Assembly (NCBI GenBank): GCA_050486285.1
Contig: JBJHCZ010000004.1
Location: forward strand, 88,196 to 152,195
Direction of reading: 5' to 3'
From: Chromatiales bacterium
GTDB taxonomy: Bacteria; Pseudomonadota; Gammaproteobacteria; SZUA-140
DNA length: 64,000 nucleotides
Each line of letters starts with the position of its first letter. Position 1 is the stretch's first letter. This document shows positions 16,694 through 54,970 of this stretch, in pieces. Under the pieces are notes generated by a model. That model searched no databases and was not told the origin of the DNA. It worked only from the letters and a program-made list of their open reading frames with translations. The translations under genes and the position numbers were made by a program.

Positions 16694-16725
16694 GGCGATC
16701 GTTCCCTGACATGAACACCGTTGAC

Positions 16726-18711: not shown

Positions 18712-18721
18712 GTGAATCTGC

Positions 18722-20356: not shown

Positions 20357-20479
20357 GACGGTATGCCCTCGAAGATAGAGAAGCTCCACAGTATCCGGTG
20401 TCGATTGCATGATCCGTGCGCTAGCGTACCGTCGGGGTAGCGTGATTCGGATAGTTTGTGACTTTATCGAGGGATCATC

Positions 20480-20704: not shown

Positions 20705-20787
20705 CGGCGAGTCAGTCCCGTGACAGCGAGCTGTGCCTGTCGCTGCTGTTTCCATTTTCACTAAACCTCAATAAATGGAGAAACGTT

Positions 20788-21189: not shown

Positions 21190-22172
21190 ACCGGATAAAT
21201 TACACACAGACGCTGCGTGGCAGTGCTTTCACAGCAGTCATCATCGCTACTTTCACGCTTGGCGCATGCGCCAGTGCGCCGACCAGCCCCCAGGGTTCAG
21301 CAGAAGTCCGCAGCAAGTTGACTGCGTTGCAGAACGATCCTGAGCTGGCCCCGCGGGCAAGGGTACAAATCCGCGAGGCAGAGGCTGCGGTACGTGAGGC
21401 GGAAGAACCCATTTCAAGGAAAGTCGCAAAGAAAGACGAAGGCCTCGGCGAGCATCGCGTCTTCATGGCGGATCGCAGGGTGGAGATCGCGAGGGCCGTA
21501 GCCGTCAGACAGTTGGCCGAGGATCAGCGCAAGCGGCTCGGAGAAGAGCGTGATCAGGCGCGCCTGCAGGCGCGTACGATCGAAGCGGACAGGGCGCGCA
21601 GCGATGCCGAACGTGCGCGCGCAGAGACAGGGAGAGCGCAAAGTGAAGCAGAGGCAGCTCGCCTGGCAAGGGCGGAGTCCTCGGCTGAATCACAGCGAAT
21701 GGCGACGCAGGCCTCTGAAGAAGCCGCACGCCACGCAGCAGAATTACAGGGGCAGATCGATGCCTTGCAGGCAGAGGCGACCGACCGCGGTCTGGTAGTA
21801 ACGCTGGGAGACGTGTTGTTTGCCACCGGTAGCTCCGAGTTGCAACCAGGGCCCAACAGTAACCTGAACAAACTGGTGAGCTTTCTCAAGAAGTACCCCG
21901 ATCAACGTGTACTGATTGAAGGGCATACCGACAGCGTCGGTAGCGCCGATTTCAATATGGCACTGTCGCAGCGTCGCGCGGAGGCCGTCAGAAACTATCT
22001 GACACGAGAGGGTGTCGCATCGCAACGGCTGACCACCTCGGGGATGGGCATGGATCACCCGGTTGCAAGCAACGCCACGGCTACCGGCCGCTTGCAGAAC
22101 CGCCGTGTCGAGATCGTCATCGAGAGACCTCAGCTGAAGTCGCCTCAGGCGACCACTGGATTCCGTCAGTAG
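21186..22172 (+). CDS. OmpA-family lipoprotein with long coiled-coil region and C-terminal OmpA/peptidoglycan-binding domain
   Basis: 328 aa; lipobox LGAC; coiled-coil (QRKRLGEERDQARLQARTIEADRARSDAERARAE...); OmpA-C motifs (NSNLNKLVSFLKKYPDQRVLIEGHTDSVGS...NMALSQRRAEAV...RRVEIV); ATGA overlap with upstream gene. Confidence 0.8.
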   Translation: MNRINYTQTLRGSAFTAVIIATFTLGACASAPTSPQGSAEVRSKLTALQNDPELAPRARVQIREAEAAVREAEEPISRKVAKKDEGLGEHRVFMADRRVEIARAVAVRQLAEDQRKRLGEERDQARLQARTIEADRARSDAERARAETGRAQSEAEAARLARAESSAESQRMATQASEEAARHAAELQGQIDALQAEATDRGLVVTLGDVLFATGSSELQPGPNSNLNKLVSFLKKYPDQRVLIEGHTDSVGSADFNMALSQRRAEAVRNYLTREGVASQRLTTSGMGMDHPVASNATATGRLQNRRVEIVIERPQLKSPQATTGFRQ

Positions 22173-22347
22173 TTTCACGCTGATTGCGGAGGCGGCTGAG
22201 ACCGGGCAGTCGAATGGCGATGACAACGTGCTTGCATTATGAGATCTGACCGGAACACACGCAGAGGAAAAATCAGGGAATCATGAATAAGGCTACGTGC
22301 CTGTTATCTGTCTGTTCGATTATCTACCTCCATGGAGTGATACTTAC

Positions 22348-22941
22348 ATGAAAATATATCTGCCCGGAAATACCATGGTTGCCACGACTATTGTAGTCCT
22401 GCTCACGCTCGGTATTGCAGCCTGTGACAATTCCTCCGATGAAACCCGGTCAGAGTCACGCAGCGACAGCATGACTGCGGCTATCTCTGACGCAGCCATG
22501 ACCGCTCAGGTCAAGGCGAAACTGGCGACCGCAGGCGATTTGAAGAGTTCCGATATCAGCGTCTCAACGGCCAATGGCGTGGTTACGCTTGAAGGTACAG
22601 TGGCCAATGCAGACGCCAAAGCCCGTGCGGAGCAGGTGGCCAATTCTGTCGATGGTGTCAGGAGCATAAGGAATAACCTGCACGCCGGCTCAGGGGGCAT
22701 CAGCATGGCAGGCGCAGAGCGGGTCATGTCCGATAGCTGGATCACCACCAAGGTGAAATCCGAGTTGCTGGCCGATAGCCTGAGCAAGGGTTTCGAAGTC
22801 AATGTCGAAACCAGACAAGGCGTAGTAGCCCTGTCAGGTGAAATGAAGGATCAGGCAGCCGTCGATCATGTTACGGAGATTGCCGAGGGCGTAGAGGGCG
22901 TCAAGAATGTCGATACATCGGGATTGACAGTCAGCGACTGA
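22348..22941 (+). CDS. OsmY-like periplasmic lipoprotein with two BON domains
   Basis: Lipobox LGIAAC; two BON repeats (ISVSTANGVVTLEGTVANADAKARAEQVANSVDGVRSI / VNVETRQGVVALSGEMKDQAAVDHVTEIAEGVEGVKNV). Confidence 0.8.
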   Translation: MKIYLPGNTMVATTIVVLLTLGIAACDNSSDETRSESRSDSMTAAISDAAMTAQVKAKLATAGDLKSSDISVSTANGVVTLEGTVANADAKARAEQVANSVDGVRSIRNNLHAGSGGISMAGAERVMSDSWITTKVKSELLADSLSKGFEVNVETRQGVVALSGEMKDQAAVDHVTEIAEGVEGVKNVDTSGLTVSD

Positions 22942-23204
22942 AATCGTGCGCAGCAGTGGCAGTCGAGGTCTCTTTATGAGGCCCCGTTATTTTCTTCCCC
23001 TCATCGACGGATTAATGACAGTAACGCTGACATAGAAAAATTTAATGCAGCGGATTAAACGAGCAACCGAGCGCAACCTGAAGGATGCGGCTTCGTTCAT
23101 CAAGGAATGATCAAGGACAGGGTATGAGCTGTCGTGAATAAAATCTGGCGGCAGGGGGCAAAAACCCCTTGCCACACGCTTTATCAACTCTGATTGGAGG
23201 CATC

Positions 23205-23387
23205 ATGAATAATCAGAACCAGGTAAAGGGCCGTGCCCGCGCTGTAAAGGGCAAGGGCAAGGAAATCGCCGGCAAGCTGGTTGGTAACCGGCGTCTGGAA
23301 TTGAAAGGAAAATTGCAGAAAGCCGCCGGTAAAGCGCAAGCGGAAGCCGGTGATCTTCAGGAGGACATCGAGGAGAAGACAAGATGA
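23205..23387 (+). CDS. CsbD-family general stress protein
   Basis: GGAGG RBS; 60 aa MNNQNQVKGRARAVKGKGKEIAGKLVGNRRLELKGKLQKAAGKAQ... typical CsbD/YjbJ. Confidence 0.75.
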   Translation: MNNQNQVKGRARAVKGKGKEIAGKLVGNRRLELKGKLQKAAGKAQAEAGDLQEDIEEKTR

Positions 23388-23782
23388 ACTATGTATTGCC
23401 CGAAACCTCTGCACGCAGGTCATTGCACGAGATTATCCCCGGGCAGATCATGATGAGCATAGACGCCTTTATCGGAGACAACGTCTATAACCCCAAGGGC
23501 GAACGCCTGGGTAATATCCAGGACATCGTCCTCGACATTCAGAGCAACAAGCTGCGTTATGCCATTGTATCGTCGGGAGGCTTCCTCGGTATGGGCAGGC
23601 GGCTGCTGGCGGTGCCGTGGAATGCGCTGGATCTGGACCCGGACAACGGGAAAATTCTGCTCAATCTGGAGGCCACGCAGATCAGCAACGCACCCGGGTT
23701 TGACAGAAATCATTGGCCCAACATGAGCGACAGTGCCTGGGCAGCCAGTATCCATTCCTATTACGGGACCAGCCAGGATTGA
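23384..23782 (+). CDS. PRC-barrel domain protein
   Basis: ATGA overlap with csbD-like gene; VYNPKGERLGNIQDIVLDIQSNKLRYAIVSSGGFLGMGRRLLAVPWNAL matches PRC-barrel pattern. Confidence 0.7.
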   Translation: MNYVLPETSARRSLHEIIPGQIMMSIDAFIGDNVYNPKGERLGNIQDIVLDIQSNKLRYAIVSSGGFLGMGRRLLAVPWNALDLDPDNGKILLNLEATQISNAPGFDRNHWPNMSDSAWAASIHSYYGTSQD

Positions 23783-23852
23783 ACGGGCGTGGATGTATCC
23801 CACCCTGCCATGCGCACTCTATGGCGCAGTTTATCAAACAGGAGATCTACCA

Positions 23853-24194
23853 ATGAGTAAAGCAACAGATACCATTACGGGAAACTCGGGTCCGGGATCG
23901 CATGTTCTCGAGAAGGGCGTCGATCGCCTGGCGAAGGGCGCCCATAATCGAATTGATTCCGCATCCGATGCCGCGGGCCCGGCGATCGATCGCATGACCT
24001 CCCGCGCGCATAATGCAGTAAACAAGGCGGATGAAGTAGCGACGCAGGCGGCCGTGGCGATCGAAGCGTTTGGCGTCAAGACTGAAGAACTGGCCGCCAC
24101 CGGTGTGAATTATATGCGCAAGCATCCGCTGCTTTCACTGAGTCTGGCGGTCGCTGCCGGCTATGTACTGAGTCGTCTGCTGGCGTCCCGCTGA
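23853..24194 (+). CDS. DUF883 family membrane-anchored stress protein (ElaB/YqjD/YgaM-like)
   Basis: Internal start MSKATDTI with GGAG RBS; helical N-part, C-terminal anchor ...YMRKHPLLSLSLAVAAGYVLSRLLASR typical of YqjD/ElaB. Confidence 0.75.
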   Translation: MSKATDTITGNSGPGSHVLEKGVDRLAKGAHNRIDSASDAAGPAIDRMTSRAHNAVNKADEVATQAAVAIEAFGVKTEELAATGVNYMRKHPLLSLSLAVAAGYVLSRLLASR

Positions 24195-24208
24195 CAGACG
24201 CGCCGATT

Positions 24209-24649
24209 ATGATGATTCAGCGCGGCGACCCCGGGACAGGTTCCGGGGCAGAGGCCGGTGACGCGCCAGCGCCGCCAACAGGTCTGATCCGGGATGTGAT
24301 CGGCCTCGTGCATGAAATCAGGGAGCAGGCGCACGACCACCTGCAACTGGCGGTTCTTGAGACGCGGCTGTCGATCAACAGTCTGCTGGCCATGGCGATC
24401 ATTGCGATCGTCATTGCCATACTGCTGATCAGTGTATGGCTTGCGCTCGTGGGCGCTGCGGTCATGGCGCTGATCGCTGTCGGCCTCAGCCCTGCGGTCG
24501 CCCTGCTGGCGATGGGAGCCTGCAATCTCGCAGGCGCGTTACTGGGCTGGCTGCTGATACGGCGCCTGAGCAACTCGCTGGGTTGGCCTGCAACACTGCG
24601 TGCGCTCAGGTCGGAGTCGTCATCCAAAGGCGAGGGTCCATCGACATGA
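24209..24649 (+). CDS. YqjE-like (DUF1469, holin-superfamily-like) inner-membrane protein
   Basis: 146 aa with two central TM helices; position immediately after DUF883 gene mirrors E. coli yqjD-yqjE-yqjK. Confidence 0.55.
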   Translation: MMIQRGDPGTGSGAEAGDAPAPPTGLIRDVIGLVHEIREQAHDHLQLAVLETRLSINSLLAMAIIAIVIAILLISVWLALVGAAVMALIAVGLSPAVALLAMGACNLAGALLGWLLIRRLSNSLGWPATLRALRSESSSKGEGPST

Positions 24650-24996
24650 GCATTCCCCCGGATCCGGGAGGCCCGGGTAAGTCGGCCTCCCTCAGGAAGA
24701 GGATCGGTATCCTCGAAATCAGGATGAGTGAGCGTCGTCAGGGGATCGGCGACACCCTGTCCAGCATCAATGTGACGGTCCATACCCGAATGGTGTCGGT
24801 GGGCGCCCTGGTCGCCGCAGGCCTGTTTGGGGCCCTGCTCGAGAAACGCCACAGGATCAGGAACTGGTCCTTGCTGACGATGCTCAGTGCAGTCGATATC
24901 ACGATATGGAAGTTGTTCTCGCTGTACTCGAGCGCCGTGGCCTCTGCGCCCGATTATGGCGCCGGTAGTTACAACAAAACCGGTCCCGGAGCATGA
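24646..24996 (+). CDS. YqjK-like hypothetical protein
   Basis: Internal ATG overlapping yqjE-like stop (ATGA); ~116 aa with one TM; assignment by position only. Confidence 0.35.
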   Translation: MSIPPDPGGPGKSASLRKRIGILEIRMSERRQGIGDTLSSINVTVHTRMVSVGALVAAGLFGALLEKRHRIRNWSLLTMLSAVDITIWKLFSLYSSAVASAPDYGAGSYNKTGPGA

Positions 24997-25035
24997 CGCC
25001 CGGCAAGGCGTAGCGGCGATGGCCGCCATACACTA

Positions 25036-31373: not shown

Positions 31374-34300
31374 ATGTCCGATACCTACCAGATAAAAATG
31401 CCCCAGCTCTCCGACACGATGACCGAGGGTGTCGTCGTCAGTTGGGAGAAGAACGTTGGTGACAAGGTCGAGCGCGGCGATATCGTCGCGACGGTCGAGA
31501 CCGACAAGGCGATCATGGACGTCGAGGTGTTCCGCGAGGGCTTCCTGTCCGGTCCGCTGGCGGCGGTCGGTGATACGGTCGCGGTCGGCGAGCCGATCGC
31601 GCAGCTGGTATCGAGCAAGGAGGCGGTCGGCAAGGGTGACGGCGGCAAGCCGAAGCAGGACAAATCGGCAAAGCAGGACAAGCCCGCGGCCCCGAAGGCG
31701 GAAGCGAAGGGCGGCGGTGACAAGGCCCCCGGGAAGTCGGCGCCAGTCGCGGAATCGGCAGGCGGCGGCAGTGCCCCCGCCGGCGCGATCTACACGATCG
31801 CGATGCCGCAGCTCTCCGACACGATGACCGAGGGTGTCGTCGTGAGCTGGGAAAAGCAGCCTGGCGACAAGATCGAGCGCGGCGACATCGTCGCGACGGT
31901 CGAGACCGACAAGGCGATCATGGACGTCGAGGTGTTCCGCGAAGGCTTCCTGTCGGGGCCGATCGCCGCGGTCGACAGCGTCGTCCCGGTCGGTGGCGAG
32001 ATGGCCTTCCTGGTCGCGAAGAAGGAAGAGGTCATCCGCGAGGGCACGCTCGGGCGCCAGTCCATAGCGCAGCAGCGGGATCATGATCACGATGAAGCCC
32101 CGGCGCGCGACACGGCCGCCGGCCGCGAAACACCCGCCGCGCCACGCGGCGCGGGCGATCATGACGCCGCGCCCGCGGATCGTCCGGCCGGCAAGGCCGT
32201 AACCCCGTATGCGCGCAAGCTCGCCGGCCGGCTCGGCGTCGATCTCGCGCAGGTCAGGGGCACCGGCCCTGCCGGCGAGGTCACCGCCGTCGATGTCGAA
32301 CGCGCCGGCGTCCGGCCCGCGGCGCATGCGGGCGCGGCGCCGGTCCACCCGGGCGCGGCCGCGCTCTTGTCCTCGCTGTCGGTCGACGTCCCCGGCGACG
32401 GCCGCAAGATGACCTCGCTCGAGCGCGCGGTCAGCCACAACATGATGCGTGCGCAGTCGATGCCGACCTTCCGCGTCACCGTCCATGCGCGTCCCGAGGC
32501 GCTCGCGCGCGCGGCGAAGAAGAACGGCATCTCGCTGACCGTCGCGATCGCGAAGGCCTGCGCGCTGGCGATGAAGGAACAGCCACGCATGAACTGGGCC
32601 TACCAGCCCGAGGACAAACTGATCGAGCGCGACCACGTCGACATCGGCATGGCGGTCACCGCCGAAGACGGCGGCCTCGTCGTGCCGGTGCTGCGCGGTT
32701 GCGAGTCGCGTTCGCTCGGGGAGCTGAACGACGACTGGAAGGACCTCGTCGAACGCGCCCGCAAACGCCGCCTCAAGCCCGACGAATACGCGAACCCGAC
32801 CTTCATGGTGTCGAACATGGGCATGCTCGGCGTCAGCCTGTTCGATGCGATCCCGACGCCCGGCATGGCGGCGATCCTCGCGATCGCGACCGCCGGCGAG
32901 CAGGGCATGCCGCTGATGATCACCGCCGACCACCGCGTCGTCTACGGCGCCCATGTCGCGAAATATCTCGGCGCGCTGAAGCAACTGATCGAGCAGCCGG
33001 AGTCGTGGATCAGCACCGGTCCTTTGATCCCGGAAGGCAACTGGGACTATGACGTCGCCGTCATCGGCGGCGGTCCCGGCGGCGAGGACTGCGCGCGCGA
33101 CCTCGCCGGTCACGGCTACAAGGTCGTCATGATCAACGACGCGCCGCTGCCCGGCGGCGAATGCCTGTGGCGCGGCTGCATCCCGTCCAAGGCCTGGCGC
33201 GCCGCGGCCGACCGCATCCGCGATCGCGCCGACGATGAGCATCTCGGTATCGAGGGCACGACCGCCGCGAAACTGAACTGGAAGAAGCTCGAGCAGACGC
33301 GTCGCGGCGTGCTCGAGACCCGCGGCGAGATGGCCGAGAAGACCGACAAGGGCGTGAAGATCACGCTGAAGCAGGGTTATGCCTCGTTCACCGGCGCGCA
33401 TGAACTGTTCGTCGATACCTCCGGCAACAGCAAGGAACGTCACCGGCGCGTCGCGCCCGGCGACGGCTCGAAGGGCGAGAAGCTGAGCTTTGGCTGCGCG
33501 GTCATCGCGACCGGCGCGCCGCCGTTCGTGCCGCCGATCCCCGGCGCGCGCGAAGGCCTCGCGGCCGGCGGCGTGCTGACTTCCGATACGGTGTGGGAGC
33601 TGAAGGACCGACCGAAGAAGCTGCTGGTCGTCGGCGGCGGCGCGATCGGTCTCGAGATGGCGCAGATCTTCCAGGACTTCGGCACCGAGGTCACGCTGCT
33701 CGAGGCCCAGGACCGCATCCTCGCCGAGGTCGAGGCCGAGGTCGCGAAGCAGTTGAGCGAAATCCTCAACGATGAGCCGCGCCTGAAGGTGCTGACCTCG
33801 GTCAAGGTCGACGAGATCAAGGGCAAGCCCGGCGCGATGAAGCTGTCCTATACCGATGCCGACGGCAAGAAGCACAACGCGAGCGCGGACTATGTGCTGA
33901 TGGCGACCGGCAAGCGCCCGCTGCTCGAGCCGCTGAAGCTCGACGCCGCCGGCGTCGCGACCGAGAAGGGCGTGGTCCGCGTCGACGCGAGCTGCCGGAC
34001 CTCGGTACCGCACATCTTCGCGGTCGGCGACGTCATCGGCGGGCTGATGCTCGCGCATACCGCCGGCCAGCAGGGCCGCGTCGCGGCGCAGACGATCGCC
34101 GGCGAGCGCGCCAGCTACGACCAGGCGAAGGACTGCGGCGTGATCTTCACGCGCCCGCAGGCCGCGTTCGTCGGCCTGTCGGCCGAGCAGGCAAAGGCGA
34201 AAGGGATCGACGCGGTCGAGGTCAAGGTGCCGATCAGCATCGATGCCAAGGCGATGATCAACCACGAGACCCACGGCCTGATCAAGATCGTCGCCGACAA

Positions 34301-34511
34301 GGCGTCGCGACGCATCGTCGGCGTGCACTTCCTCGCCGACCACGCCGACACGCTGATCGGCGAGGCGGTCATGATGGTCGCGGGCAAGCTGACGCTGGAC
34401 CAGGTCGCCGAGGCGATCCATCCGCATCCGACCCAGACCGAGCTGTTCGGCGACATGGCGCGCCGGCTGCTGTCGCGCCTGCGCCGCAGCGCGAAAAAGC
34501 CGGTGTCATAA
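31374..34511 (+). CDS. fused E2-E3 protein: two lipoyl domains + E3-binding domain + 2-oxoacid dehydrogenase acyltransferase catalytic domain + FAD/NAD dihydrolipoyl dehydrogenase-like flavoprotein
   Basis: Single 1045-aa ORF; two near-identical lipoyl domains (TVETDKAIMDVE x2), PSBD (TPYARKLAGRLGVDL), catalytic DHRVVYGAH, then GGGPGG FAD fold with redox disulfide GGECLWRGCIPSK and C-terminal HPHPTQTE. Confidence 0.8.
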   Translation: MSDTYQIKMPQLSDTMTEGVVVSWEKNVGDKVERGDIVATVETDKAIMDVEVFREGFLSGPLAAVGDTVAVGEPIAQLVSSKEAVGKGDGGKPKQDKSAKQDKPAAPKAEAKGGGDKAPGKSAPVAESAGGGSAPAGAIYTIAMPQLSDTMTEGVVVSWEKQPGDKIERGDIVATVETDKAIMDVEVFREGFLSGPIAAVDSVVPVGGEMAFLVAKKEEVIREGTLGRQSIAQQRDHDHDEAPARDTAAGRETPAAPRGAGDHDAAPADRPAGKAVTPYARKLAGRLGVDLAQVRGTGPAGEVTAVDVERAGVRPAAHAGAAPVHPGAAALLSSLSVDVPGDGRKMTSLERAVSHNMMRAQSMPTFRVTVHARPEALARAAKKNGISLTVAIAKACALAMKEQPRMNWAYQPEDKLIERDHVDIGMAVTAEDGGLVVPVLRGCESRSLGELNDDWKDLVERARKRRLKPDEYANPTFMVSNMGMLGVSLFDAIPTPGMAAILAIATAGEQGMPLMITADHRVVYGAHVAKYLGALKQLIEQPESWISTGPLIPEGNWDYDVAVIGGGPGGEDCARDLAGHGYKVVMINDAPLPGGECLWRGCIPSKAWRAAADRIRDRADDEHLGIEGTTAAKLNWKKLEQTRRGVLETRGEMAEKTDKGVKITLKQGYASFTGAHELFVDTSGNSKERHRRVAPGDGSKGEKLSFGCAVIATGAPPFVPPIPGAREGLAAGGVLTSDTVWELKDRPKKLLVVGGGAIGLEMAQIFQDFGTEVTLLEAQDRILAEVEAEVAKQLSEILNDEPRLKVLTSVKVDEIKGKPGAMKLSYTDADGKKHNASADYVLMATGKRPLLEPLKLDAAGVATEKGVVRVDASCRTSVPHIFAVGDVIGGLMLAHTAGQQGRVAAQTIAGERASYDQAKDCGVIFTRPQAAFVGLSAEQAKAKGIDAVEVKVPISIDAKAMINHETHGLIKIVADKASRRIVGVHFLADHADTLIGEAVMMVAGKLTLDQVAEAIHPHPTQTELFGDMARRLLSRLRRSAKKPVS

Positions 34512-36861: not shown

Positions 36862-37308
36862 TTATGATAAAACCATCACCTCAGTTTCAGTGATTCGCCT
36901 CATGCGGGCATCGTTGCCGATGAATCCGGAGGCGCCGGCATGGATGGCCGTAGCCAGCACGATCGCGTCCGGTGTCCTTATCCGGTATTTCGCCCGCAGG
37001 CGCGCGCCGAGATCGGCGATTTCGATCGACAGGTCCGTCCACGTCAGATTTGGATAGGTAGTCAACAAGGCATAGAACTGGTTAACCCTGCTGTCATCGT
37101 CGTTGCGATAGGGTTGCACCAGCACTTCAAGAAGAGAGAGCGTGGAGCAGATGCCGATGTTATGTCCCGCCTCGATGGCCGCGAAGATCTTCTGCGCCGG
37201 ACGTCGATATTCCGGATGGCCTTCTATCTGGTAGATCAGGATATTGGAGTCGATGCCGATCCGGTGATTTCGCTTGAGGAATCCGTCCAGGGCCTTCCGG
37301 CTCACCAC
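36862..37308 (-). CDS. vapC: PIN-domain toxin (VapC-like)
   Basis: 148 aa; IGIDSNILIY (conserved Asp), ...TPDAIVLATAI...; overlaps upstream antitoxin gene. Confidence 0.75.
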   Translation of the reverse strand: MVSRKALDGFLKRNHRIGIDSNILIYQIEGHPEYRRPAQKIFAAIEAGHNIGICSTLSLLEVLVQPYRNDDDSRVNQFYALLTTYPNLTWTDLSIEIADLGARLRAKYRIRTPDAIVLATAIHAGASGFIGNDARMRRITETEVMVLS

Positions 37309-37520
37309 GAACGGCGTTCCTCGTCGATGTGCTTGCCGCTGTATACGCCCTTGCCTTTGCCCGCGAGTGCCTTTTCATAGTTTTTCGGTTTCGGCATCAG
37401 CAGGGTGACGCCGCCCTTGACGACCACCAGAAGCTCGTCGCCGCCCTTGACGTTCATGGCCTCCCGCGCCTCCCTGGGCAGGACGATCTGGTTTTTGGAG
37501 GATAATTTGAGGCTGGTCAT
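37302..37520 (-). CDS. vapB: AbrB/MazE/SpoVT-family antitoxin (VapB-like)
   Basis: Internal start MTSLKLSSKNQIVLPREAREAMNVKGGDELLVVVKGG...; swapped-hairpin antitoxin fold pattern. Confidence 0.7.
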   Translation of the reverse strand: MTSLKLSSKNQIVLPREAREAMNVKGGDELLVVVKGGVTLLMPKPKNYEKALAGKGKGVYSGKHIDEERRSW

Positions 37521-37542
37521 GATGATTCTCCCGGCTGTCAGG

Positions 37543-37571
37543 TGCTTTACTATATATAAAAAAGTAAAGCA
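37543..37571. promoter_or_regulatory. palindrome TGCTTTACT-(AT-rich 11 nt)-AGTAAAGCA immediately upstream of vapB (candidate autoregulatory operator / promoter)
   Basis: Perfect 9-bp inverted repeat around TATATATAAAA read directly. Confidence 0.4.
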
Positions 37572-37659
37572 GCTCAAGTGCCGGGCAGCCAATTACCGGC
37601 ACGGAATCACGCCGGTATGGCATTGGAAGTTTGTCTGAAGTGAGGCGCGGACCTGGAAG

Positions 37660-38727
37660 TTACAGCAACCCCAGCGGATCCCCCGGATCGATGCCGTCCT
37701 TGAACGGCAGTTTGCGGTCGTGATGGGTGATCTGGTAGACCTTGCCGACCCAGTTGTTGATGACCGCCTCGGCGGTGTCGTGCCAGGTGTTGTGCAGGCC
37801 GTCGCGGATCATATCCTCGGGCAGTTCCGGGACCGGGTTTCCGGTCTGCATCGCCGTGATGACCCTGTCCCTGTGTTCGTCGAGGATCGCGCGCGTCCTC
37901 AGCGTGAAGTAGTTTTCCGGAAACGGCGGATAGTCGGCGCGCCGGCCCTGCGCGTACAGCATCACTTCGCGCTTGTATTCCTTGAGCAGGCTGATCGTGT
38001 CGTATTCCGGGTGGCCCTGGAAGTACACGAAGCGGAAGCGATCCTCGCTGACCGCGAGGTGGACGCCTGACTCGCGGCTCTCGACCAGCACGTGCAGGCC
38101 GGCGGCCTCGAACTGGTCGCGGCCGATCTCGTTGAAGCGCGAGTGGGGGACGTCGAACAGCGTGTTGACGTCGTTGACCAGCGGGTGGCCGCGGTCGAGC
38201 ACGCGATGGCGGTAGACGCCCCAGCGCTTGGCCGGCAGTCGGCGGCGGCGCTGCCCGAAGCGGAACTGCAGCACTGCGTGGGTGGCGAGGCAGGAACACA
38301 GGATCGAGGTGACATTGTCCGCCGCCCAGTCAATGACCTCGATCAGCGGGTTCCAGAACGGCTCGGCGGCCAGATCCGGCTGCGTGACATTGGCGCCGGT
38401 GATGATCAGCGCGTCGAGGCCGTCGGCCTTGATCTGTTCGAAGCTCTCGTAATAAGCGCGCACATAATCGAGCGCCTGCTCGTTGCGATCCAGCGCGTCG
38501 AGCGTGAACGGGTGCATGTAGAACTGCGCGATCTGGTTGCTCTCGCCGATCAGGCGATAGAATTGCCGCTCGGTGGCCTGCAGCGCGGCGTCCGGCATCA
38601 TGTTCAGCAGGCCGATGTGCAGCTCGCGGATGTCCTGGCTGCCGGCCTCGCGCTCGGTCAGCACGGTCGCGCCTTCCTCCTTCAGTCGCTCGAAGGTCGG
38701 CAGTCCGGATTTCGAAACCAGCGGCAT
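37660..38727 (-). CDS. metA: homoserine O-acyltransferase (MetA family, succinyl/acetyl)
   Basis: 355 aa; colinear with E. coli MetA (IGLLNMMP..., ALIITGANV, HPEYD). Confidence 0.9.
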   Translation of the reverse strand: MPLVSKSGLPTFERLKEEGATVLTEREAGSQDIRELHIGLLNMMPDAALQATERQFYRLIGESNQIAQFYMHPFTLDALDRNEQALDYVRAYYESFEQIKADGLDALIITGANVTQPDLAAEPFWNPLIEVIDWAADNVTSILCSCLATHAVLQFRFGQRRRRLPAKRWGVYRHRVLDRGHPLVNDVNTLFDVPHSRFNEIGRDQFEAAGLHVLVESRESGVHLAVSEDRFRFVYFQGHPEYDTISLLKEYKREVMLYAQGRRADYPPFPENYFTLRTRAILDEHRDRVITAMQTGNPVPELPEDMIRDGLHNTWHDTAEAVINNWVGKVYQITHHDRKLPFKDGIDPGDPLGLL

Positions 38728-38744
38728 CGTCAGCTCCGGGTACG

Positions 38745-39590
38745 TCAGCCCTGGCGCGCGACCGCGCGCTCGACGATCTCGAGGAAGGTCTCCTCGTCGC
38801 GCACGCCGGCGAGTTCCTCGGTGGTGATCGTGTAGCCGTAGTCGCGCGCGATCTGTTCGTAGCGCGGGATGCGCGAGCGGAACAGTTTCGGGAAGATCCA
38901 GCGCACGAAATCGTCCGGATCGATCATCGCGACGTAGGGCAGTTCCTTCTCCTTCATGTAGGCCGCCAACTGCTCATCGAGGAAGGCCTCACGGTAATAC
39001 AGGGGCTTGGGGTCGCTGATCGCGCGCTCGATCAGCGCGCGTTCGTCGTCGGCGCTGGCCTTGATATACAGGATCAGTGTGTGGCGGCTCAGGATGTCGA
39101 TGACATCGGGGTCGTCGAGCTCGCAGATGCTGCCGCCGGCATCGTTGATGAAGTGCTGATAGCCGTAAATGAAGCGCGCCTTGTGGATGAAGTCGGGCAC
39201 GTCCTTCATCGCGGCGATCTCGCCGAGCCGGTGCAGTTCCTGGCGGCGCTTGAATTCCTTGAGCGGCAGGCCGCCGCGCTGCGGGTCGCCGAGCTTGCCG
39301 AGAAAGCTCGATACCGGCTGCAGGTTGTAGACGGTGATGTTGTTGTTGATGTAGATTGAGTCCGAACGCAGCAGCTCGCGCAGGAACGGTACCTGCATCG
39401 CCTGCTGCTTTATGTTGTCGAGGATCGGTTCGTCGAGATACCGGGTGCCGATGCGGTAGTCCCCGGAGAAATGGAACCAGTCGTCCTGCATCAGCAGATC
39501 GGACAGATGGGTCTTGCCCACGCCGGACATGCCGAGCAGGGTGATGCACTTGTTTTTCCAGGCCCTGAATTCCTTGACGCCCAGTTTCAT
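38745..39590 (-). CDS. uncharacterised P-loop NTPase/kinase-like protein, operonic with metA
   Basis: 281 aa; Walker A GMSGVGKT near N-terminus; no recognisable named family from reading; 17-bp gap to metA. Confidence 0.55.
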   Translation of the reverse strand: MKLGVKEFRAWKNKCITLLGMSGVGKTHLSDLLMQDDWFHFSGDYRIGTRYLDEPILDNIKQQAMQVPFLRELLRSDSIYINNNITVYNLQPVSSFLGKLGDPQRGGLPLKEFKRRQELHRLGEIAAMKDVPDFIHKARFIYGYQHFINDAGGSICELDDPDVIDILSRHTLILYIKASADDERALIERAISDPKPLYYREAFLDEQLAAYMKEKELPYVAMIDPDDFVRWIFPKLFRSRIPRYEQIARDYGYTITTEELAGVRDEETFLEIVERAVARQG

Positions 39591-39658
39591 AGCCCTAATC
39601 CTGCAAGACGCGGAGTGACGATGGATGGATTGTAACTTATCTCCTGAAGAATTGTGCC

Positions 39659-40132
39659 ATGCGTGACTTCGTCCGCTTCACAAATATTTTCGGCAGCGCG
39701 GTCTATGGCGTGTTCTGCATCTGCCTGCTGTCGATCAGCATGGCGATGGTCGGCTACGCCCTGTGGGGCATCCTCGCCGCGGTGCTTGCCGGCGATGACG
39801 TCATCGAGAAGCTGCTCGAGGCGATCGGCCTCATCGTCATCTCGATCGCCGTGTTCGACGTGTCCAAATACCTGCTGGAAGAGGAGATCCTCCGCGGGCG
39901 CCGCCTGCGCACGATGCGCGATGTCCGCCAGACGCTGTCGAAATTCCTCGTCATCATCTCGATTGCGGTGACGCTCGAGGCGCTGGTCTTCGTGTTCGGC
40001 GCCGGCCGCAGGGACATGAGCATGCTGCTCTATCCGACCTTGCTGTTGTTCGCGGCGACGCTCCTGATCGTCGGGCTCGCGGTCTTCCAGCGGCTCAGCG
40101 TCGATACCGAAGCCAAAGAACGGGAGGAGTGA
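39659..40132 (+). CDS. hypothetical integral membrane protein (~4 TM)
   Basis: 157 aa hydrophobic ORF, coding-like; overlapping 39654..39971 ORF is low-complexity and rejected. Confidence 0.4.
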   Translation: MRDFVRFTNIFGSAVYGVFCICLLSISMAMVGYALWGILAAVLAGDDVIEKLLEAIGLIVISIAVFDVSKYLLEEEILRGRRLRTMRDVRQTLSKFLVIISIAVTLEALVFVFGAGRRDMSMLLYPTLLLFAATLLIVGLAVFQRLSVDTEAKEREE

Positions 40133-40605
40133 ACCGGCACATCAATACCGGCGCCAGCTTCGGCCTCACCTCCGGGGTCATCACCACGCTGGGCTTGATG
40201 GTCGGCCTGCATTCCGGCACCCAGTCGACGATGGTTGTCGTCGGCGGCATCGTCACGATCGCGATCGCCGATGCGATGTCCGACGCGCTCGGCATCCATA
40301 TCGCCGAGGAGTCGAAGGGCGAGCACACGCCGGCCGAGATCTGGCTGACGACGGTCGCGGCCTTCCTCGCGAAACTCCTGATGGCGCTGACCTTCCTGGT
40401 GCCGATCCTGCTGTTCGATCTCGGCACTGCGATCGTCGTCGGGGCAGTCTGGGGGCTGACGGTGATCGCCTGGCTCAGTTACCGCATGGCGCGCGCGCAG
40501 GGCGCCGCGCCGTGGAAGGTCATCGGCGAGCATGTCGGCATCACCGTGCTGGTGATCGTGCTGAGCCACCTGGTCGGGGTCGCGGTCGCCGGGTTCTTCG
40601 GCTGA
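40129..40605 (+). CDS. VIT1/CCC1-family membrane protein (membrane domain only)
   Basis: 158 aa; 5 TM with ...IADAMSDALGIHIAEES... typical of VIT family. Confidence 0.6.
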   Translation: MNRHINTGASFGLTSGVITTLGLMVGLHSGTQSTMVVVGGIVTIAIADAMSDALGIHIAEESKGEHTPAEIWLTTVAAFLAKLLMALTFLVPILLFDLGTAIVVGAVWGLTVIAWLSYRMARAQGAAPWKVIGEHVGITVLVIVLSHLVGVAVAGFFG

Positions 40606-40615
40606 CGATGCCGTT

Positions 40616-41041
40616 TCAGCCGCGCGCCAGGCGGCGCAGGCATTCGAGATAGGCCGCCTCGTCCGGTTCGACGCCGTCGCGCTGCGCGCGCCACAGTGCC
40701 TCGCCGAGGCAGTCGATCATCCGGTGTTCGGCCTCGTGGAGGTCGCCGAGGCGGGCGGCGATCGCCCGATGGAGCGCCGCGATGTCCGCGGGACGCCCCG
40801 CCGCGACCTGCTCGCGGATCGCGATGTGCATGCCCATGTGCAGAAACGGATTGGTCGCGCCGAGTTCGGGCGGGTATTCGCGCTCGAGCGCGTCTTCGGC
40901 CAGCAGCGCATGATATTCGGGGTGGTCGGCGATGATGTCGGCAACCAGCAGCTCGACCGGCTCGAGCGGCGTGCCGGCGAGTCGCTTCAGCCACGCGGCG
41001 CCGAAGAAGCGCCGCATCTGTTCCCGGTCCTGACCGAACAT
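40616..41041 (-). CDS. DUF1841 family protein
   Basis: Internal start MFGQDREQMRRFF...; start overlaps nth stop. Confidence 0.55.
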   Translation of the reverse strand: MFGQDREQMRRFFGAAWLKRLAGTPLEPVELLVADIIADHPEYHALLAEDALEREYPPELGATNPFLHMGMHIAIREQVAAGRPADIAALHRAIAARLGDLHEAEHRMIDCLGEALWRAQRDGVEPDEAAYLECLRRLARG

Positions 41042-41676
41042 CAGTCCTCCTTGTCGGGATATTCGCAGAGATCCTCGATCAGGCACGCGCCGCAGCGCGG
41101 CCTGCGCGCAATGCAGACATAGCGCCCGTGCAGGATCAGCCAGTGATGGGCATCGTGCAGGAACTCCTCCGGCACGACTTCGAGCAGGCGGCGCTCGACC
41201 TCGGCGACGTTTTTGCCGGGGGCGAGGCCGGTGCGGTTCGCGACGCGGAAGATGTGCGTATCGACCGCGATCGTCGGTTCGCCGAAGGCAGTGTTCAGGA
41301 TCACGTTCGCGGTCTTGCGGCCGACTCCCGGCAGCGCCTCGAGCGCGGCGCGGTCGCGCGGCACGCGGCCGCCATGCCGCTCGACGAGGAGGCGGCAGGT
41401 CTCGAGGATGTTGCGCGCCTTGGTATTGAACAGCCCGATCGTGCGGATATGTTCCTTGAGGCCGTCCTCGCCGAGCGCGAGCAGCTTCCGCGGGGTGTTG
41501 GCGACCTTGAACAGCCCGCGGGTCGCGAGGTTCACGCCCTTGTCGGTGGCCTGCGCCGACAGGATCACCGCGACCAGCAGCTCGAACGGTGTGCGGTACT
41601 TCAGCTCGGTAGTCGGTTTCGGGTTGGCCTTGCGCAGGCGGGTGAAGAGCTCGCGGCGTGTCTGTTCGTTCATCAT
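41041..41676 (-). CDS. nth: endonuclease III
   Basis: Colinear with E. coli Nth (LVAVILSAQATD, GVGRKTANV, HhH-GPD, C-terminal 4Fe-4S CIARRPRCGACLIEDLC). Confidence 0.9.
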   Translation of the reverse strand: MMNEQTRRELFTRLRKANPKPTTELKYRTPFELLVAVILSAQATDKGVNLATRGLFKVANTPRKLLALGEDGLKEHIRTIGLFNTKARNILETCRLLVERHGGRVPRDRAALEALPGVGRKTANVILNTAFGEPTIAVDTHIFRVANRTGLAPGKNVAEVERRLLEVVPEEFLHDAHHWLILHGRYVCIARRPRCGACLIEDLCEYPDKED

Positions 41677-44180: not shown

Positions 44181-45824
44181 TTATTCCCTGTCCGACTCCG
44201 GTGGCTTCCTGCCGTCACTGCCGCCCGCCGCGGGCGGCGGCGCTTTCGCGTCGTCGTTCCCGGCAGCGGACCGGCCGGCCTGCTGCATCGCCGCCTCCCT
44301 GCGCGCTTCGGCCTGCTGCATCGCAGACTTCATCTGTTCCTCGCCGCGCTGGCGGGCGGCGGCCACGGTATCGAGCGCGGACTTCTTCTGCTGGCGCTTC
44401 GCCTCGCGCTCCTGCTTTTCCCGCTCGATGCGCTGCTGGCGCGCCTCGAAACGCTGGCGCGCGATATCGGATTTCTCCCGCTCCCGTTCCTGCGTCCAGA
44501 TGTCGCCCTTCGCGTAGCGGAAATACTGTACCAGAGGAATGTTGCTCGGGCATACATACGAGCAGCAGCCGCATTCGATGCAGTCGAACAGGTTGTACTC
44601 CTGGACCTTGTCGAGATCCTTGTGCTTCGAGTACCAGTACAGCTGCTGGGGCAGCAGGTTGATCGGGCAGACGTCGGCGCAGGCGCCGCAGCGGATGCAG
44701 GGCATCGCCGGTCTGGCCGGGGCGATCTCTTCGGGCGCGGCAGCCAGTACGCAATTCGTCGTCTTGATGACCGGCAGGCCGAGGTCATGCAGCGCGAAGC
44801 CCATCATCGGGCCGCCCATGATCAGGCGCTCTATGCGTGCGGCGTCGCCGCCGCACTGTTCGATCAGGTCGCGCATCGGCGTGCCGAGCAGGGTGTCGAG
44901 GTTGCGGCCCTCGCCGACCGCGCTGCCGGTCACGGTGACGATGCGCGAGATCAGCGGCTCGCCGTGACGGATCGCGCGCCACACCGCGGCAGCGGTGCCG
45001 ACGTTGACGTTGACGACGCCGATGTTGATGCACAGGCCGTTGGCCGGTACTTCCTTGCCGGTCAGCACGCGCACGAGTTGCTTCTCGCTGCCCTGCGGAT
45101 ACAGCGTCGGCACCGGCACGACCTCGACGCCGTCCTGCCCCGCGATCGCGGCGCGCATTGCGTCGATTGCCTCGGGCTTGTTGTCCTCGATCGCGATCAG
45201 GCAGCGCCCGGCCTGCAACGCATGGCGGACGATCTCGAGGCCGCCGACGATCTCTGCCGCCCGCTCGCGCATCAGCACGTCGTCGCAGGTGATATACGGT
45301 TCGCACTCGACGCCGTTCAGGATCAGGATCTCGACCGACTTGCGCTGGCCGGGATTGAGCTTGATGTAGGAGGGGAAGCCGGCGCCGCCGAGACCGACGA
45401 TGCCGGCCTCGCGGATCAGGTTGCGCAGCGCGCTGGGTTCGAGCGAGCGATAGTCGTCGATGCCTTCATGCGGCTTCCACTCGTCAAGGCCATCCGGTTC
45501 GATGACGATGCACGGCGCCTTCAGGCCCGACGGATGGGGGATCGCATGCTCGCCGATATCGACGACCGTGCCCGAGGTCGGCGCATGGACCGGCGCGCTG
45601 ACGAAACCGGTCGCGCGCGCGATCATCTCGCCCTTCAGCACGCGGGCACCCGGAGCGACCAGGGCCTCCGCCGGCTGTCCGATGTGCTGGTGCAGCGGCA
45701 GGATCAGGCGGCGCGGGATACGCGCGGGCGCGATCGGTGACTGGTTCGATTCAGTCTTGTGCTGGGTCGGATGCACGCCGCCGCGGAATCGCCACAGGCG
45801 GCGGGGCCCCGGGGCTGCCGTCAT
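44181..45824 (-). CDS. rnfC: Rnf complex subunit C (NADH-binding, 2x[4Fe-4S]) with long charged C-terminal tail
   Basis: Start [11 protein letters not shown]... chosen inside longer ORF (ATGA overlap with rnfB); two ferredoxin motifs ([24 protein letters not shown]). Confidence 0.85.
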
Positions 45825-46402
45825 GAGTTGCCTCCGGCCGACTTGCGTTCCGCCGGGAGGTCTGCGGGTCGTGCCTCGGGGTAGGGCCATTTCCAGGTCA
45901 GGATGTCCTGGCGCAGCGGCACCATGTCGATGCAGTCGACCGGGCAGGGCGGCACGCACAGGTCGCAGCCGGTGCATTCCTTCGCGATGACGGTATGCAT
46001 CTGTTTCGGCGCGCCGACGATCGCATCGACCGGGCAGGCCTGGATGCACAGCGTGCAGCCGATGCAGCGCGCCTCGTCGATGACGGCGACGGTCTTCGGC
46101 TTGATCGCGCCGTTGTCGGGATTCAGCGGCTTCGGATCGCGGTCGAGCAGATCGGCGAGCGCATGGATCGTCGCCTCGCCGCCGGGCGGGCACTGGTTGA
46201 TGTCGGCCTCGCCCTTGGCGATCGCGGTGGCATAGGGCCGGCAGCCGGGATAGCCGCATTGCCCGCACTGGGTCTGCGGCAGCAGGCCGTCGATCTGGTC
46301 GACCAGCGGATCGCCCTCGACCTTGAAGCGGATCGCCGCATAGCCGAGCGTCAACCCGAACACGACCGCCATGACACTGAGCGCAATGATCGCGGCCAGC
46401 AT
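45821..46402 (-). CDS. rnfB: Rnf complex subunit B (ferredoxin-like)
   Basis: 193 aa; CGQCGYPGC and two 4Fe-4S motifs. Confidence 0.9.
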
Positions 46403-51973: not shown

Positions 51974-52652
51974 CGGTGTCGTTGACCTCGTCGAAATCGA
52001 GCGGCGCCGCCAGCGGGCGGCCGTCGAACAGGATGCGGCCGTTCCGCAGTCGCAGCCGGCCCTCGGCGAACCAGCGGATCGCGAGCGGGTACATCCGGTG
52101 TTCGAGCGCGAGCACCCGGGCCGCGAGCGCGGCCGGATCGTCGCCGCGTCGCACCGGCACCCGCCCCCGGATGACCACGGGACCGCCGTCGAGCTCGTCG
52201 GTGACGAAGTGCACGCTGGCGCCGTGCTCGGCGGCGCCGGCCTCCAGCGCGCGCCGATGGGTATTCAGGCCCGGAAAGGCCGGCAGCAGGGACGGATGGA
52301 TATTGAGCAGCCGACCGTCGAATGCGCTGACGAAATCCGGCGCGAGGATGCGCATATAGCCGGCCAGCACGACGAGGTCAGGCGCCAGCCCGACGACGCG
52401 ATTCAGCAATGCGCGATCGAAATCCGCGCGCCCGCTGCACGCAGCCGGATCGACGACGACCGCGGCAATGCCGGCCCGGGCGGCACGGTCGAGCGCCTGC
52501 GCCTGCGGCCGGTCGCTGACCACCGCGCGGATCGTCGCGGGGATCCCGCCGCGCGTCGCGGCATCGATGATCGCCTGGAGATTGCTGCCGCGGCCCGAGG
52601 CCAGCACGACCAGCGCCGGCGGCGCCCGCCGCGTTTCAGGTGATGACGACAC
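51933..52652 (-). CDS. purN: phosphoribosylglycinamide formyltransferase
   Basis: Colinear with E. coli PurN ([39 protein letters not shown]); start (GTG at 52650-52652) uncertain, the longer 317-aa ORF is read-through. Confidence 0.85.
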
Positions 52653-53688
52653 GTGGCGCGTTCGGCTGGCGCGACGCGAGATGGCCGATCCGCCAGGCGG
52701 TTTCACCGTTGCCGGCGAGCTGCGCGAGCGCCTTGTCGACATCGCCGGCGGGCACCGCGATGACCATGCCGATGCCGCAGTTGAACGTCCGCGCCATCTC
52801 GTCCGCGGCCACGTTGCCCTGCCGCTGCAGCCAGTCGAAGATCGCCGGGCGCGTCCAGCTCGCGCCGTCGATGACCGCCTGGACATCGTCCGGGATCACG
52901 CGGGGGATATTCTCGGTGAGTCCGCCACCCGTGATATGGGCGATCGAACGGACATCGACCGCCTCGATCAGCGCCAGTACGCTCTTCACATAGATGCGGG
53001 TCGGCGCCAGCAGTGCCTCGCCGAGCGTACCGTCGCCGAACGGCGCCGACAGGTCGGCCTTGCGGGTCTCGATGATCTTGCGGATCAGCGAATAGCCGTT
53101 CGAGTGCGGACCGCTCGACGCCAGCCCGATCAGCGCATCGCCGGCCTGCGCACGCGTGCCGTCGATGATCGCGCTCTTCTCGACGACGCCGACGCAGAAG
53201 CCGGCGAGATCATAGTCGCCGTCGCCGTACATGCCCGGCATCTCGGCGGTCTCGCCGCCGATCAGCGCCGCGCCGGCCTGCTCGCAGCCGGCGCCGATGC
53301 CGCGGATCACGTCGGCGGCGACATCGACGTCGAGCCGGCCGGTCGCATAGTAATCGAGAAAGAACAGCGGCTCCGCGCCCTGGACCACGAGGTCGTTGAC
53401 GCACATCGCGACCAGATCGATGCCGACCGTGTCGTGCCGCCCCAGCGTGATTGCGAGGCGCAGCTTGGTGCCGACGCCGTCGGTGCCCGACACCAGCACC
53501 GGTTCACGATAACGATCGAGCGGCAGCTCGAACAGGGCGCCGAAACCGCCGAGCCCGGCCATGACGCCGGGCCGCGCCGTGCGCTTCGCGACCGGCTTGA
53601 TGCGCTCGACGAGGCGCGCGCCGGCATCGATGTCGACGCCGGCATCGCGATAACTGAGTGATGCGGTAGGGGTGTCGTCCTGGCTCAC
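52636..53688 (-). CDS. purM: phosphoribosylformylglycinamidine cyclo-ligase (AIR synthetase)
   Basis: GTG start [23 protein letters not shown]...; 350 aa colinear with PurM. Confidence 0.9.
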
Positions 53689-53848
53689 GGGAGTGCGTTC
53701 TTGTTGCGTGATTCGGGGTGTCCGCGAGCCGCAATTGTAACCCATATCCCGGTGGCAGGGACACCGTGGAACGCCTCCTTGAGCAGCGGCGTGTAGTCCG
53801 GATGGTGGCCATGCGGTATCATGCAGCGTTTGCGCCGGTGGATGCAGA

Positions 53849-54970
53849 ATGATGCGTGTGAAGTCGCCAGCAGGCAGGGGAAGCGGATGGATCGCGCGCG
53901 GCCTGATCGTCGCGCTCGCGCTGTTCGGCTGCGCCCTGGTTGCGCAGGCCGATGAACTGTATGAATCCCAGGTCCCGGTGAGCGGCCAGCAGGACCGGGA
54001 ACGCACCCGCGCGCTGCGCGCCGCCTTCGAACAGGTCCTGCTCAAGGTCACCGGCCGGCGCGACAGCGCCCAGGCGCCGGCGATCGAGGCCGCGTTGCGC
54101 CAGCCGATGCGCTATGTCCAGCAGTTCCTTTACCTCCCGCTGCCCGACGACAAGACCGGCGAGCGCATGCGCGCGGACGGCCATCGCGAACTGCTGCGCG
54201 TTCGCTTCGACGTCAATGCCGTCAATCAACTGCTGCGCGAAGCCGGCCTGGCGCAATGGGGGCGCACGCGCCCGGTCACGCTGATGTGGCTCGCGGTCGA
54301 GGATCGCGGCGAGCGCTGGCTGCTCGGCGGCGATGCCCGCACCGACATGCGCGCGGCCGCGGAACGCGAGGCGCGCGCGCGCGGCATCCCGGTGTTGCTG
54401 CCGCTGATGGACCTCGAGGACCGCAGGGAACTGCATTTCACCGATGTCTGGGGCAACTTCCAGGATTCGCTGTTGCGCGCCTCGGAACGCTACCAGCCGG
54501 GCGCGGTGCTGGCTGGACGGCTGCTGCACGGAGCCGGCGGCGGCTGGAGCGCGCGCTGGTCGTTATATCATGACGGCAATGCCGATCACTGGTCGGCCGC
54601 TGCGGAGGACTGGGAAGGATTGCTCGCCGCCGGTATCAACGGCGCCGCAGACCTGCTCGCCGCCCGGCATGCGCGCATCATCAGCGCCGACGGCCGCCAG
54701 TCCATCGACCTCGTCGTCACCGATGTCCGCGGCATCGACGGATATGAGCGCGCGATGAAATATCTCGCCGGCCTCGATCCGGTCGAGCGCATCCAGGTGG
54801 TCGGCCTCGAGGCCGACCAGGTGCGCTTTCGGCTCGCCCTGAGCGGCGATCGCGAAACGCTCGTACGCCTGATCGGCTTCGGTTCCGCGCTGGTGCCGCA
54901 GCCGCCCGGACCGGGGCGGTCGCCGGACGGCGGCGGCAGCCAGGAGCTCAGCTATCGACTGCTGCCGTGA
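53849..54970 (+). CDS. DUF2066 domain protein (secreted)
   Basis: 373 aa with signal peptide; conserved position between purM and pgsA-like/AI-2E/hda cluster. Confidence 0.55.

Follow-up and report, generated by a model that had tools for sequence, protein, structure and literature searches.

An unnamed P-loop kinase family encoded upstream of metA is a candidate non-orthologous homoserine kinase in Gamma- and Alphaproteobacteria

Contig JBJHCZ010000004.1 of a Chromatiales bacterium (Gammaproteobacteria; assembly GCA_050486285.1) carries a gene for a 281-residue P-loop protein of an unnamed family, followed directly by metA, the gene for homoserine O-acyl(succinyl)transferase. We analysed this gene within a 64-kb stretch of the contig (64,000 nucleotides, positions 88,196 to 152,195), referred to here as the window, and all coordinates are those of the window. 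The gene begins with an ATG and occupies positions 38745..39590 of the minus strand, on which metA (37660..38727) and all of the motifs described below also lie. A 17-nt spacer (38728..38744) separates its stop codon from the metA start and contains the sequence GGAG (38734-38737) 6 nt before the metA ATG; a sequence scan found no terminator-like site between the two genes. The pair looks like one operon, and co-transcription is predicted. Upstream, a region of 68 nt (39591..39658) common to this gene and a divergent membrane-protein gene is the presumed promoter, in which a promoter scan found no sigma-70 consensus. A preliminary description of the locus had reported the reading frame, its N-terminal Walker A motif (GMSGVGKTH) and its position 17 nt upstream of metA on the same strand, all of which the sequence confirms, and could name no family; indeed, nothing exceeds the Pfam or NCBIfam thresholds. 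Here we describe this protein as a predicted kinase of the shikimate-kinase fold and a candidate non-orthologous homoserine kinase.

The open reading frame is a genuine gene under purifying selection, beyond a chance open frame in GC-rich DNA, because codon composition, substitution pattern, homologues and structural models all agree. Its G+C content is 0.88 at third and 0.34 at second codon positions, as in other genes of this 65% G+C window, and the ratio of nonsynonymous to synonymous substitution rates measured against three relatives is 0.10-0.18. More than 8000 homologues are present in protein databases. Clustering at 50% identity reduces this compact family to 603 clusters, of which many are fragments, and 110 columns are invariant among 36 sequences with 73-89% identity. 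AlphaFold models are confident, with a mean predicted local distance difference test score (pLDDT) of 83.5, rising to 88.0 with a 103-sequence alignment, and a predicted template modelling score of 0.85. An exact look-up of the window sequence returned no database record.

The downstream gene encodes a 355-residue long form of MetA, identified by the Pfam HTS model (PF04204; E 4.9e-84, 282 bits) and by NCBIfam NF003776 (522 bits against a cut-off of 358), and its Cys/His/Glu triad aligns with C142/H235/E237 of the E. coli enzyme. A species-level scan, with one genome per GTDB species, yielded 595 relatives of the kinase. Of the 80 closest (65-88% identity), 79 have metA as the next gene downstream in the same orientation, and conservation does not extend to other neighbours. 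The genomes concerned include Chromatiales, Ectothiorhodospiraceae, Acidiferrobacterales, Sulfuricaulis, Thiodiazotropha, Sedimenticolaceae, Ca. Tenderia and lucinid symbionts. The pair is also found at ~45-50% identity, there with a 305-residue MetA, in Aestuariivirga, Actibacterium pelagium, Defluviimonas aquaemixtae, Cochlodiniinecator and Pseudoruegeria, and in four Paracoccus species a gene annotated 'ATPase' (for example, WGR63701.1) adjoins 'homoserine O-succinyltransferase'. A metagenome scan seeded with more distant members, as a five-sequence alignment, added 61 loci ranging from 35% to 70% G+C. In the pooled set, which was not drawn at random, metA follows the kinase gene in 126 of 136 evaluable loci (93%), with a median gap of 36 nt, and the linkage noticed in the preliminary description extends over two proteobacterial classes, the Gamma- and the Alphaproteobacteria. 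At the other ten loci (~7%) the kinase gene stands alone, its neighbours (prfC, rpsD/gltB, fumarase and a beta-lactamase-like gene) being unrelated. Two apparent kinase-MetA fusions (P0254 and P0176, with an HTS fragment) were set aside as Rosetta-stone evidence; they contain wrong-frame low-complexity stretches indicative of frameshift or gene-calling artefacts, and they document kinase-metA adjacency only.

No Pfam or NCBIfam model matches the kinase above its curated threshold; the Pfam matches are confined to the P-loop, with E>0.02. The labels given to its homologues, which carry no precomputed Pfam domain, are 'ATPase', 'hypothetical protein' and sometimes 'shikimate kinase'. The protein has the features that define the nucleoside monophosphate (NMP) kinase-like fold class of P-loop nucleoside triphosphatases, namely an N-terminal Walker A motif, a parallel beta-sheet core and a lid. 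A single-sequence search of the PDB gave a match at the level of the P-loop only. A profile built from 33 members of the family (31-58% identity) reaches the shikimate kinases 1via and 1kag by sequence (E ~4e-4), over two stretches that comprise the P-loop region and the lid region. A Foldseek search with the predicted structure likewise placed shikimate kinases at the top, with other NMP-type kinases scoring at most 10.9.

The catalytic positions of shikimate kinase can be followed through the family by alignment with hhalign to E. coli AroK; conservation was read across the same 33 members. In the Walker A motif, G20-M-S-G-V-G-K26-T27 followed by H28 (P-loop, 39510..39533), residues S22, G25 and K26 are invariant and K26 falls on K15 of AroK. 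The motif F-S42-G-D44-Y-R-I-G-T (39444..39470), with an invariant D44 and a nearly invariant S42, is the counterpart of the D32-x-D34 motif that contacts substrate and Mg, S42 and D44 being placed on D32 and D34. The motif N-D150-A-G-G153-S154-I-C-E157 (39120..39146) falls on the AroK sequence ATGGGS, and so corresponds to the GGG loop with an additional invariant aspartate; D150, G153 and S154 are invariant, and C156 and E157 nearly so. The lid motif D-P194-K195-P196-L-Y-Y (38994..39014) corresponds to 'RPLL' of shikimate kinase with lysine in place of arginine. K195 and P196 are invariant, and the segment PKPlyY aligns with 'RPLFY' of 1via in the profile-PDB comparison and with KKRPLLH of AroK in hhalign. 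Finally, in the motif R-S-R240-I-P-R-Y244-E (38856..38879) the invariant R240 lies on the carboxylate-binding arginine of shikimate kinase (NERNPLYEE), and Y244 is nearly invariant. Between the second and third of these motifs lies an enlarged, family-specific substrate-side segment (residues ~48-140; 39171..39449) that falls on gaps in the AroK alignment and contains the motif LGKxGxxxxGG; G98, G101, G107, R116 and E124 are conserved within it. Residues 50-100 are modelled with a pLDDT of 55-82, lower than the core, though their sequence is highly conserved. The kinase also carries a C-terminal helical extension beyond the shikimate kinase core. Taken together, the sequence and the model predict a kinase of small molecules that has the shikimate-kinase fold, looks active and probably acts on a hydroxy-carboxylate, and the extra invariant acidic residues E124 and D150 would suit an amino-acid substrate.

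Given these matches, the protein might simply be a divergent paralogue with AroK/AroL function, for which its position beside metA would carry no functional meaning; its best structural and profile matches are to shikimate kinases, and some sources give homologues that name. We consider this highly improbable. Of the shikimate-binding residues of AroK/AroL (SKI, PF01202; PDB 1kag, 2iyq; M. tuberculosis/E. coli numbering), D34, GGG 79-81 and R136 have their counterparts in D44, GGS and R240, but R58 has none, since the shikimate-binding segment that bears it is replaced by an unrelated stretch of ~90 residues. With this stretch and the C-terminal extension, the protein reaches 281 residues as against ~170 for AroK/AroL, and it differs further in the lid lysine and in the invariant D150 and E124. 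The window protein gives no match at E<1 to the shikimate kinase models of Pfam and NCBIfam, which detect only 1-4 of the 33 members. The genomic partner is metA rather than aro genes, and linkage at 93% of loci in two classes is not attributable to chance. Moreover, P. inhibens possesses a separate, essential shikimate kinase (PMC5764234). By sequence and model, the family stands apart as an unnamed lineage within the shikimate-kinase fold that has an architecture of its own.

Proteins at four metagenome loci (L149-L152) are 21-25% identical to the family over ~240 residues, and these P-loop kinases may belong to a sister family. A 660-residue protein with a sulfotransferase domain (P0255) contains a stretch of 95 residues 66% identical to kinase residues 67-161; this stretch is embedded in unrelated sequence, and we left the protein out of the analysis as a probable chimera of assembly or gene calling, a real domain transfer being the less likely alternative.

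The shikimate-kinase fold has a precedent in homoserine metabolism. The homoserine kinase of Desulfovibrio vulgaris is a shikimate-kinase-like protein, DvMF_0971, assigned by genetics and by rescue of an E. coli thrB mutant (PMC5764234). The corresponding model, NF040667 (hom_kin_desulfo), is the most consistent, although weak, match of our family among 18,950 NCBIfam models, detecting 26 of the 33 diverse members with a best E of 4.2e-6, and the shikimate kinase models match 4, 2 and 1 of the 33 (E<=0.1). Both proteins are shikimate-kinase-like P-loop proteins, and the role in phosphorylating the gamma-hydroxyl of homoserine is the one we propose for the kinase described here. The two differ in that the NF040667 profile has 163 positions against the 281 residues of the kinase, and in that the Desulfovibrio family is known for threonine auxotrophy and not for linkage to metA; the family described here lies outside it, as a lineage of its own. 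Unrelated folds have been recruited to the homoserine kinase step repeatedly (PMC7311316; GapMind 2026 preprint). ThrB (of the GHMP fold), ThrB2 (APH-type), ThrH and HomK (BT2402, TIGR02535) share the proposed product, O-phospho-L-homoserine for ThrC, but have folds unrelated to that of the kinase and no sequence similarity to it, and no Pfam or NCBIfam match to a GHMP_kinases or APH domain was found in the kinase. HomK probably uses a phosphoryl donor other than ATP (GapMind 2026 preprint).

A homoserine kinase has long been missing from the groups in which the family occurs. Phaeobacter inhibens and Dinoroseobacter shibae have a documented gap at this step (PMC5764234; PMC7311316; PMC10809761). 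An unknown enzyme has been invoked to fill it in model Rhodobacterales. For Rhodobacter sphaeroides, the metabolic model states of homoserine kinase that 'No gene is indicated in Kegg', and its placeholder, RSP_0311, is non-essential. Among symbionts, in which the gap has been noted since 2007-2008, thrB is the only missing amino-acid gene of Ca. Ruthia and Ca. Vesicomyosocius from vesicomyid clams, whose authors postulated an unknown enzyme, and the gammaproteobacterial symbionts of siboglinids lack the KEGG threonine set, their authors calling the tubeworm symbionts unable to make threonine. The GapMind 2026 preprint reports thrB missing in 16 of 208 prototrophs, counts homoserine kinase among the four steps behind most unexplained amino-acid-biosynthesis gaps of prototrophic bacteria, and speculates that unknown kinases fill the step. 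The kinase family is found in the same groups, Rhodobacterales and thiotrophic gammaproteobacterial lineages, by a comparison with the literature made at the level of groups. In open-access papers and bioRxiv, we found no prior functional assignment of the family and no report of homoserine phosphorylation or thrB rescue by a member, the search including Paracoccus, RSP_0009 and alternative homoserine kinases.

Fitness data are available for R. sphaeroides, in which RSP_0009, an 870-nt gene annotated 'hypothetical protein', lies directly upstream of metA (RSP_0010). The gene order there, guaA, drug/metabolite transporter (DMT), outer-membrane protein, DMT, RSP_0009, metA, hydrolase, ppk2 and tetR, is that of three of our loci (L087, L153 and L154) gene for gene, the synteny with L153 and L154 spanning eight genes. 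In published transposon sequencing (Tn-seq), RSP_0009 received 0 Tn5 insertions in minimal medium under both aerobic and photosynthetic conditions. In the LB library it received only 5 (density 0.007, family-wise error rate 6e-8), against 42.5 for metA and 36 for thrC. Insertions are also scarce in RSP_0008, the DMT gene immediately upstream. Growth without amino acids requires the syntenic RSP_0009, which is already depleted on LB.

From these observations we favour, as on balance probable, a homoserine kinase that is not orthologous to ThrB and would act alongside MetA where the pathways branch at homoserine, and we regard the gene as the best candidate to date for the enzyme missing from the lineages named above. 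Homoserine is preferred as the substrate because MetA shares it, because DvMF_0971 provides a precedent, and because the affinity to NF040667, the lineages with the gap and the fitness of RSP_0009 point in the same direction. The kinase would transfer phosphate from ATP to the gamma-hydroxyl of L-homoserine, yielding O-phospho-L-homoserine, the substrate of threonine synthase, and would in this way replace ThrB. One operon would then supply both activations of the homoserine gamma-hydroxyl, phosphorylation for threonine and succinylation by MetA for methionine. We infer both that homoserine is the substrate and that this organism has no other homoserine kinase. There is about an even chance that the family as a whole is the missing ThrB of the Rhodobacterales (Rhodobacter/Cereibacter, Paracoccus and the roseobacters Phaeobacter and Dinoroseobacter) and, among Gammaproteobacteria, of sulfur oxidisers that include the chemosynthetic symbionts of animals, in a two-enzyme homoserine-activation operon with metA. 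A bolder extension is that the kinase also keeps toxic homoserine low, or gates MetA, so that its loss is worse than that of thrC.

Several observations weigh against a homoserine kinase. NF040667 scores the window protein at 18.3 bits against a cut-off of 197, aligning residues 14-64 with profile positions 1-50; we therefore speak of affinity and not of membership. Neither thrC nor hom lies beside the kinase gene in any of the 136 loci, those without metA included. A larger substrate or a protein partner might account for the ~90 extra residues and for the extension at the C-terminus. RSP_0009 is placed in the family by synteny and length rather than by sequence, and its depletion on LB exceeds that of thrC, so that a pure role in the threonine pathway needs an additional assumption such as homoserine toxicity or a broader function. 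Homoserine toxicity is known for yeast thr1 mutants. No thrB was found in the 64-kb window, which holds only housekeeping genes, and one stretch of that length says little about the genome. Lastly, homoserine kinase activity is a prediction from sequence and model for all members of the family alike.

The nearly exclusive company of metA suggests a second explanation, in which the protein is an accessory or regulatory ATPase dedicated to MetA that binds, controls or stabilises it, perhaps sensing ATP or a pathway metabolite, and makes no intermediate. An analogy is offered by MetX and MetW, since the gene for MetX, a homoserine O-acetyltransferase, is tightly and widely paired with a small, co-transcribed second gene for an accessory protein. 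MetW, however, has a methyltransferase fold and is encoded downstream of metX, whereas here a P-loop kinase is encoded upstream of metA. In keeping with a MetA partner, linkage is almost exclusively to metA (126/136), involves two types of MetA and never thrC or hom; residues 48-100 combine strong conservation with lower model confidence, which could be expected of an interface; and over the 80 closest loci the kinase and MetA reach a similarly high level of conservation. Yet R. sphaeroides can do without metA on LB (42.5 insertions), where the syntenic RSP_0009 is strongly depleted (5), and the role of RSP_0009 is therefore not limited to the support of MetA, a further difference from the MetX-MetW pair. 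The invariance of D44, G153-S154 and R240 points to a small-molecule phosphoryl acceptor, ~7% of loci have no adjacent metA, and the apparent fusions to MetA are frameshift artefacts. We regard a protein devoted to MetA as improbable.

A kinase of some other hydroxy-carboxylate or methionine-cycle metabolite is somewhat easier to credit, although still unlikely. Candidate substrates are 4-hydroxy-L-threonine (of pyridoxal phosphate (PLP) synthesis), 5-methylthioribose, adenosine and compounds related to O-succinylhomoserine, and the link to metA would then reflect the pathway concerned. The fold fixes the reaction class only, there could be room for a bigger ligand in the enlarged segment on the substrate side, and the LB defect of RSP_0009, greater than that of thrC, suggests a need beyond threonine. 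The Rhodobacterales operon, furthermore, runs on into ppk2, which encodes a nucleotide-phosphorylating enzyme; ppk2 is, however, absent from the gammaproteobacterial loci, and none of the 136 loci has PLP, methionine-salvage or nucleoside genes as its context. Of the steps related to homoserine, homoserine kinase is the only one documented as a gap in the lineages that carry the family, and the model for which the family has the best affinity is that of a homoserine kinase.

A homoserine kinase paired with MetA also bears on what the preliminary description had proposed, namely a regulator, a metabolite kinase or part of a variant pathway coupled to the first committed step of methionine biosynthesis. 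The fold and the invariant positions favour the metabolite kinase, and the comparison of RSP_0009 with metA on LB speaks against a regulator directed purely at MetA. A coupling within the methionine pathway is not borne out, as the likely product, O-phosphohomoserine, would feed threonine, and the coupling would lie at the shared homoserine. Nor did the regulatory elements of methionine genes that had been suggested appear upstream: an Rfam E-value scan of positions 37000-41500 for an S-adenosylmethionine riboswitch or another RNA element gave only two chance-level matches elsewhere, and a search of the 64-kb window that allowed up to 3 mismatches found no MetJ box. The searches did not place the protein in a well-characterised unrelated kinase family, and its linkage to metA is conserved.

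If the kinase acts on homoserine, a gap in symbiont genomes that was noted in 2007-2008 and persists in GapMind 2026 would be closed, and metabolic models would no longer wrongly predict auxotrophy for marine roseobacters, Paracoccus, Rhodobacter and thiotrophic symbionts. The shikimate-kinase fold would then have been recruited to homoserine twice independently, and the result would give a name and a hidden Markov model to many thousands of proteins labelled 'ATPase' or 'hypothetical'. Should the protein instead be a partner of MetA or a kinase of another metabolite, an operon conserved at 93% of loci would still mark an uncharacterised component of methionine or threonine metabolism. A concrete and widespread candidate gene makes the homoserine kinase gap experimentally tractable.

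The two types of MetA that partner the kinase are a 355-residue form in Gammaproteobacteria and the ordinary 305-residue form in Alphaproteobacteria (for example, 7909-8832 of L087). The longer form has an insertion of ~40 residues near the C-terminus and reads 'MPDAA' where the E. coli enzyme reads 'MPKKI'; judged from the sequence, this change of the Lys-Lys motif might affect acyl-CoA preference. In the Rhodobacterales (L087, L088, L153, L154 and L090; RSP_0005-0014 of R. sphaeroides) the pair is part of a larger cluster, in which guaA, an EamA/DMT transporter gene and a gene for a FadL/Toluene_X outer-membrane protein precede the kinase gene and metA, and an alpha/beta hydrolase gene (not always present), ppk2 and tetR follow. 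As noted above, ppk2 does not extend to the gammaproteobacterial kinase loci. EamA genes also precede the kinase gene in a low-GC marine locus (L109). One exporter of the EamA family is RhtA, through which E. coli exports threonine and homoserine.

Just downstream of metA in the window, a two-gene cassette (36862-37592, minus strand; G+C 0.59) comprises a 96-residue AbrB/SpoVT-type antitoxin-like gene (TIGR01439) overlapping a gene for a 148-residue protein that appears PIN/VapC-like by eye and matches no model. The cassette is absent from the closest relative (L001), in which gloA follows metA more closely. Divergent from the kinase gene are two overlapping genes for small multi-pass membrane proteins (39659-40132 and 40129-40605, plus strand), the second of which has a weak, below-threshold VIT1-like match (E 1.6e-4). 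Beside the kinase gene, this pair is kept only in that same relative (81-84% identity), and it probably lies outside the module.

Elsewhere in the window, an open reading frame of 1045 codons (31374-34511, plus strand) follows the genes for the alpha and beta subunits of pyruvate dehydrogenase E1 and joins dihydrolipoamide acetyltransferase E2 (residues ~1-545) to a complete dihydrolipoyl dehydrogenase E3 (~556-1040). Such an E2-E3 fusion is unusual, and could also result from a missed stop codon or a frameshift. The products of rnfC/rsxC (44181-46268, minus strand) and purM (52636-54051, minus strand), in reading frames delimited by the first start, have ~155 and ~130 extra N-terminal residues, respectively, outside the family models; their start codons are probably over-called, with real extensions possible. 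A low-G+C island at ~16000-25000 (0.55-0.58, against ~0.67 elsewhere) encodes a sulfatase-domain protein, a pirin, a PRC-barrel protein, a flavodoxin-like reductase and several open reading frames without matches, and may have been acquired horizontally.

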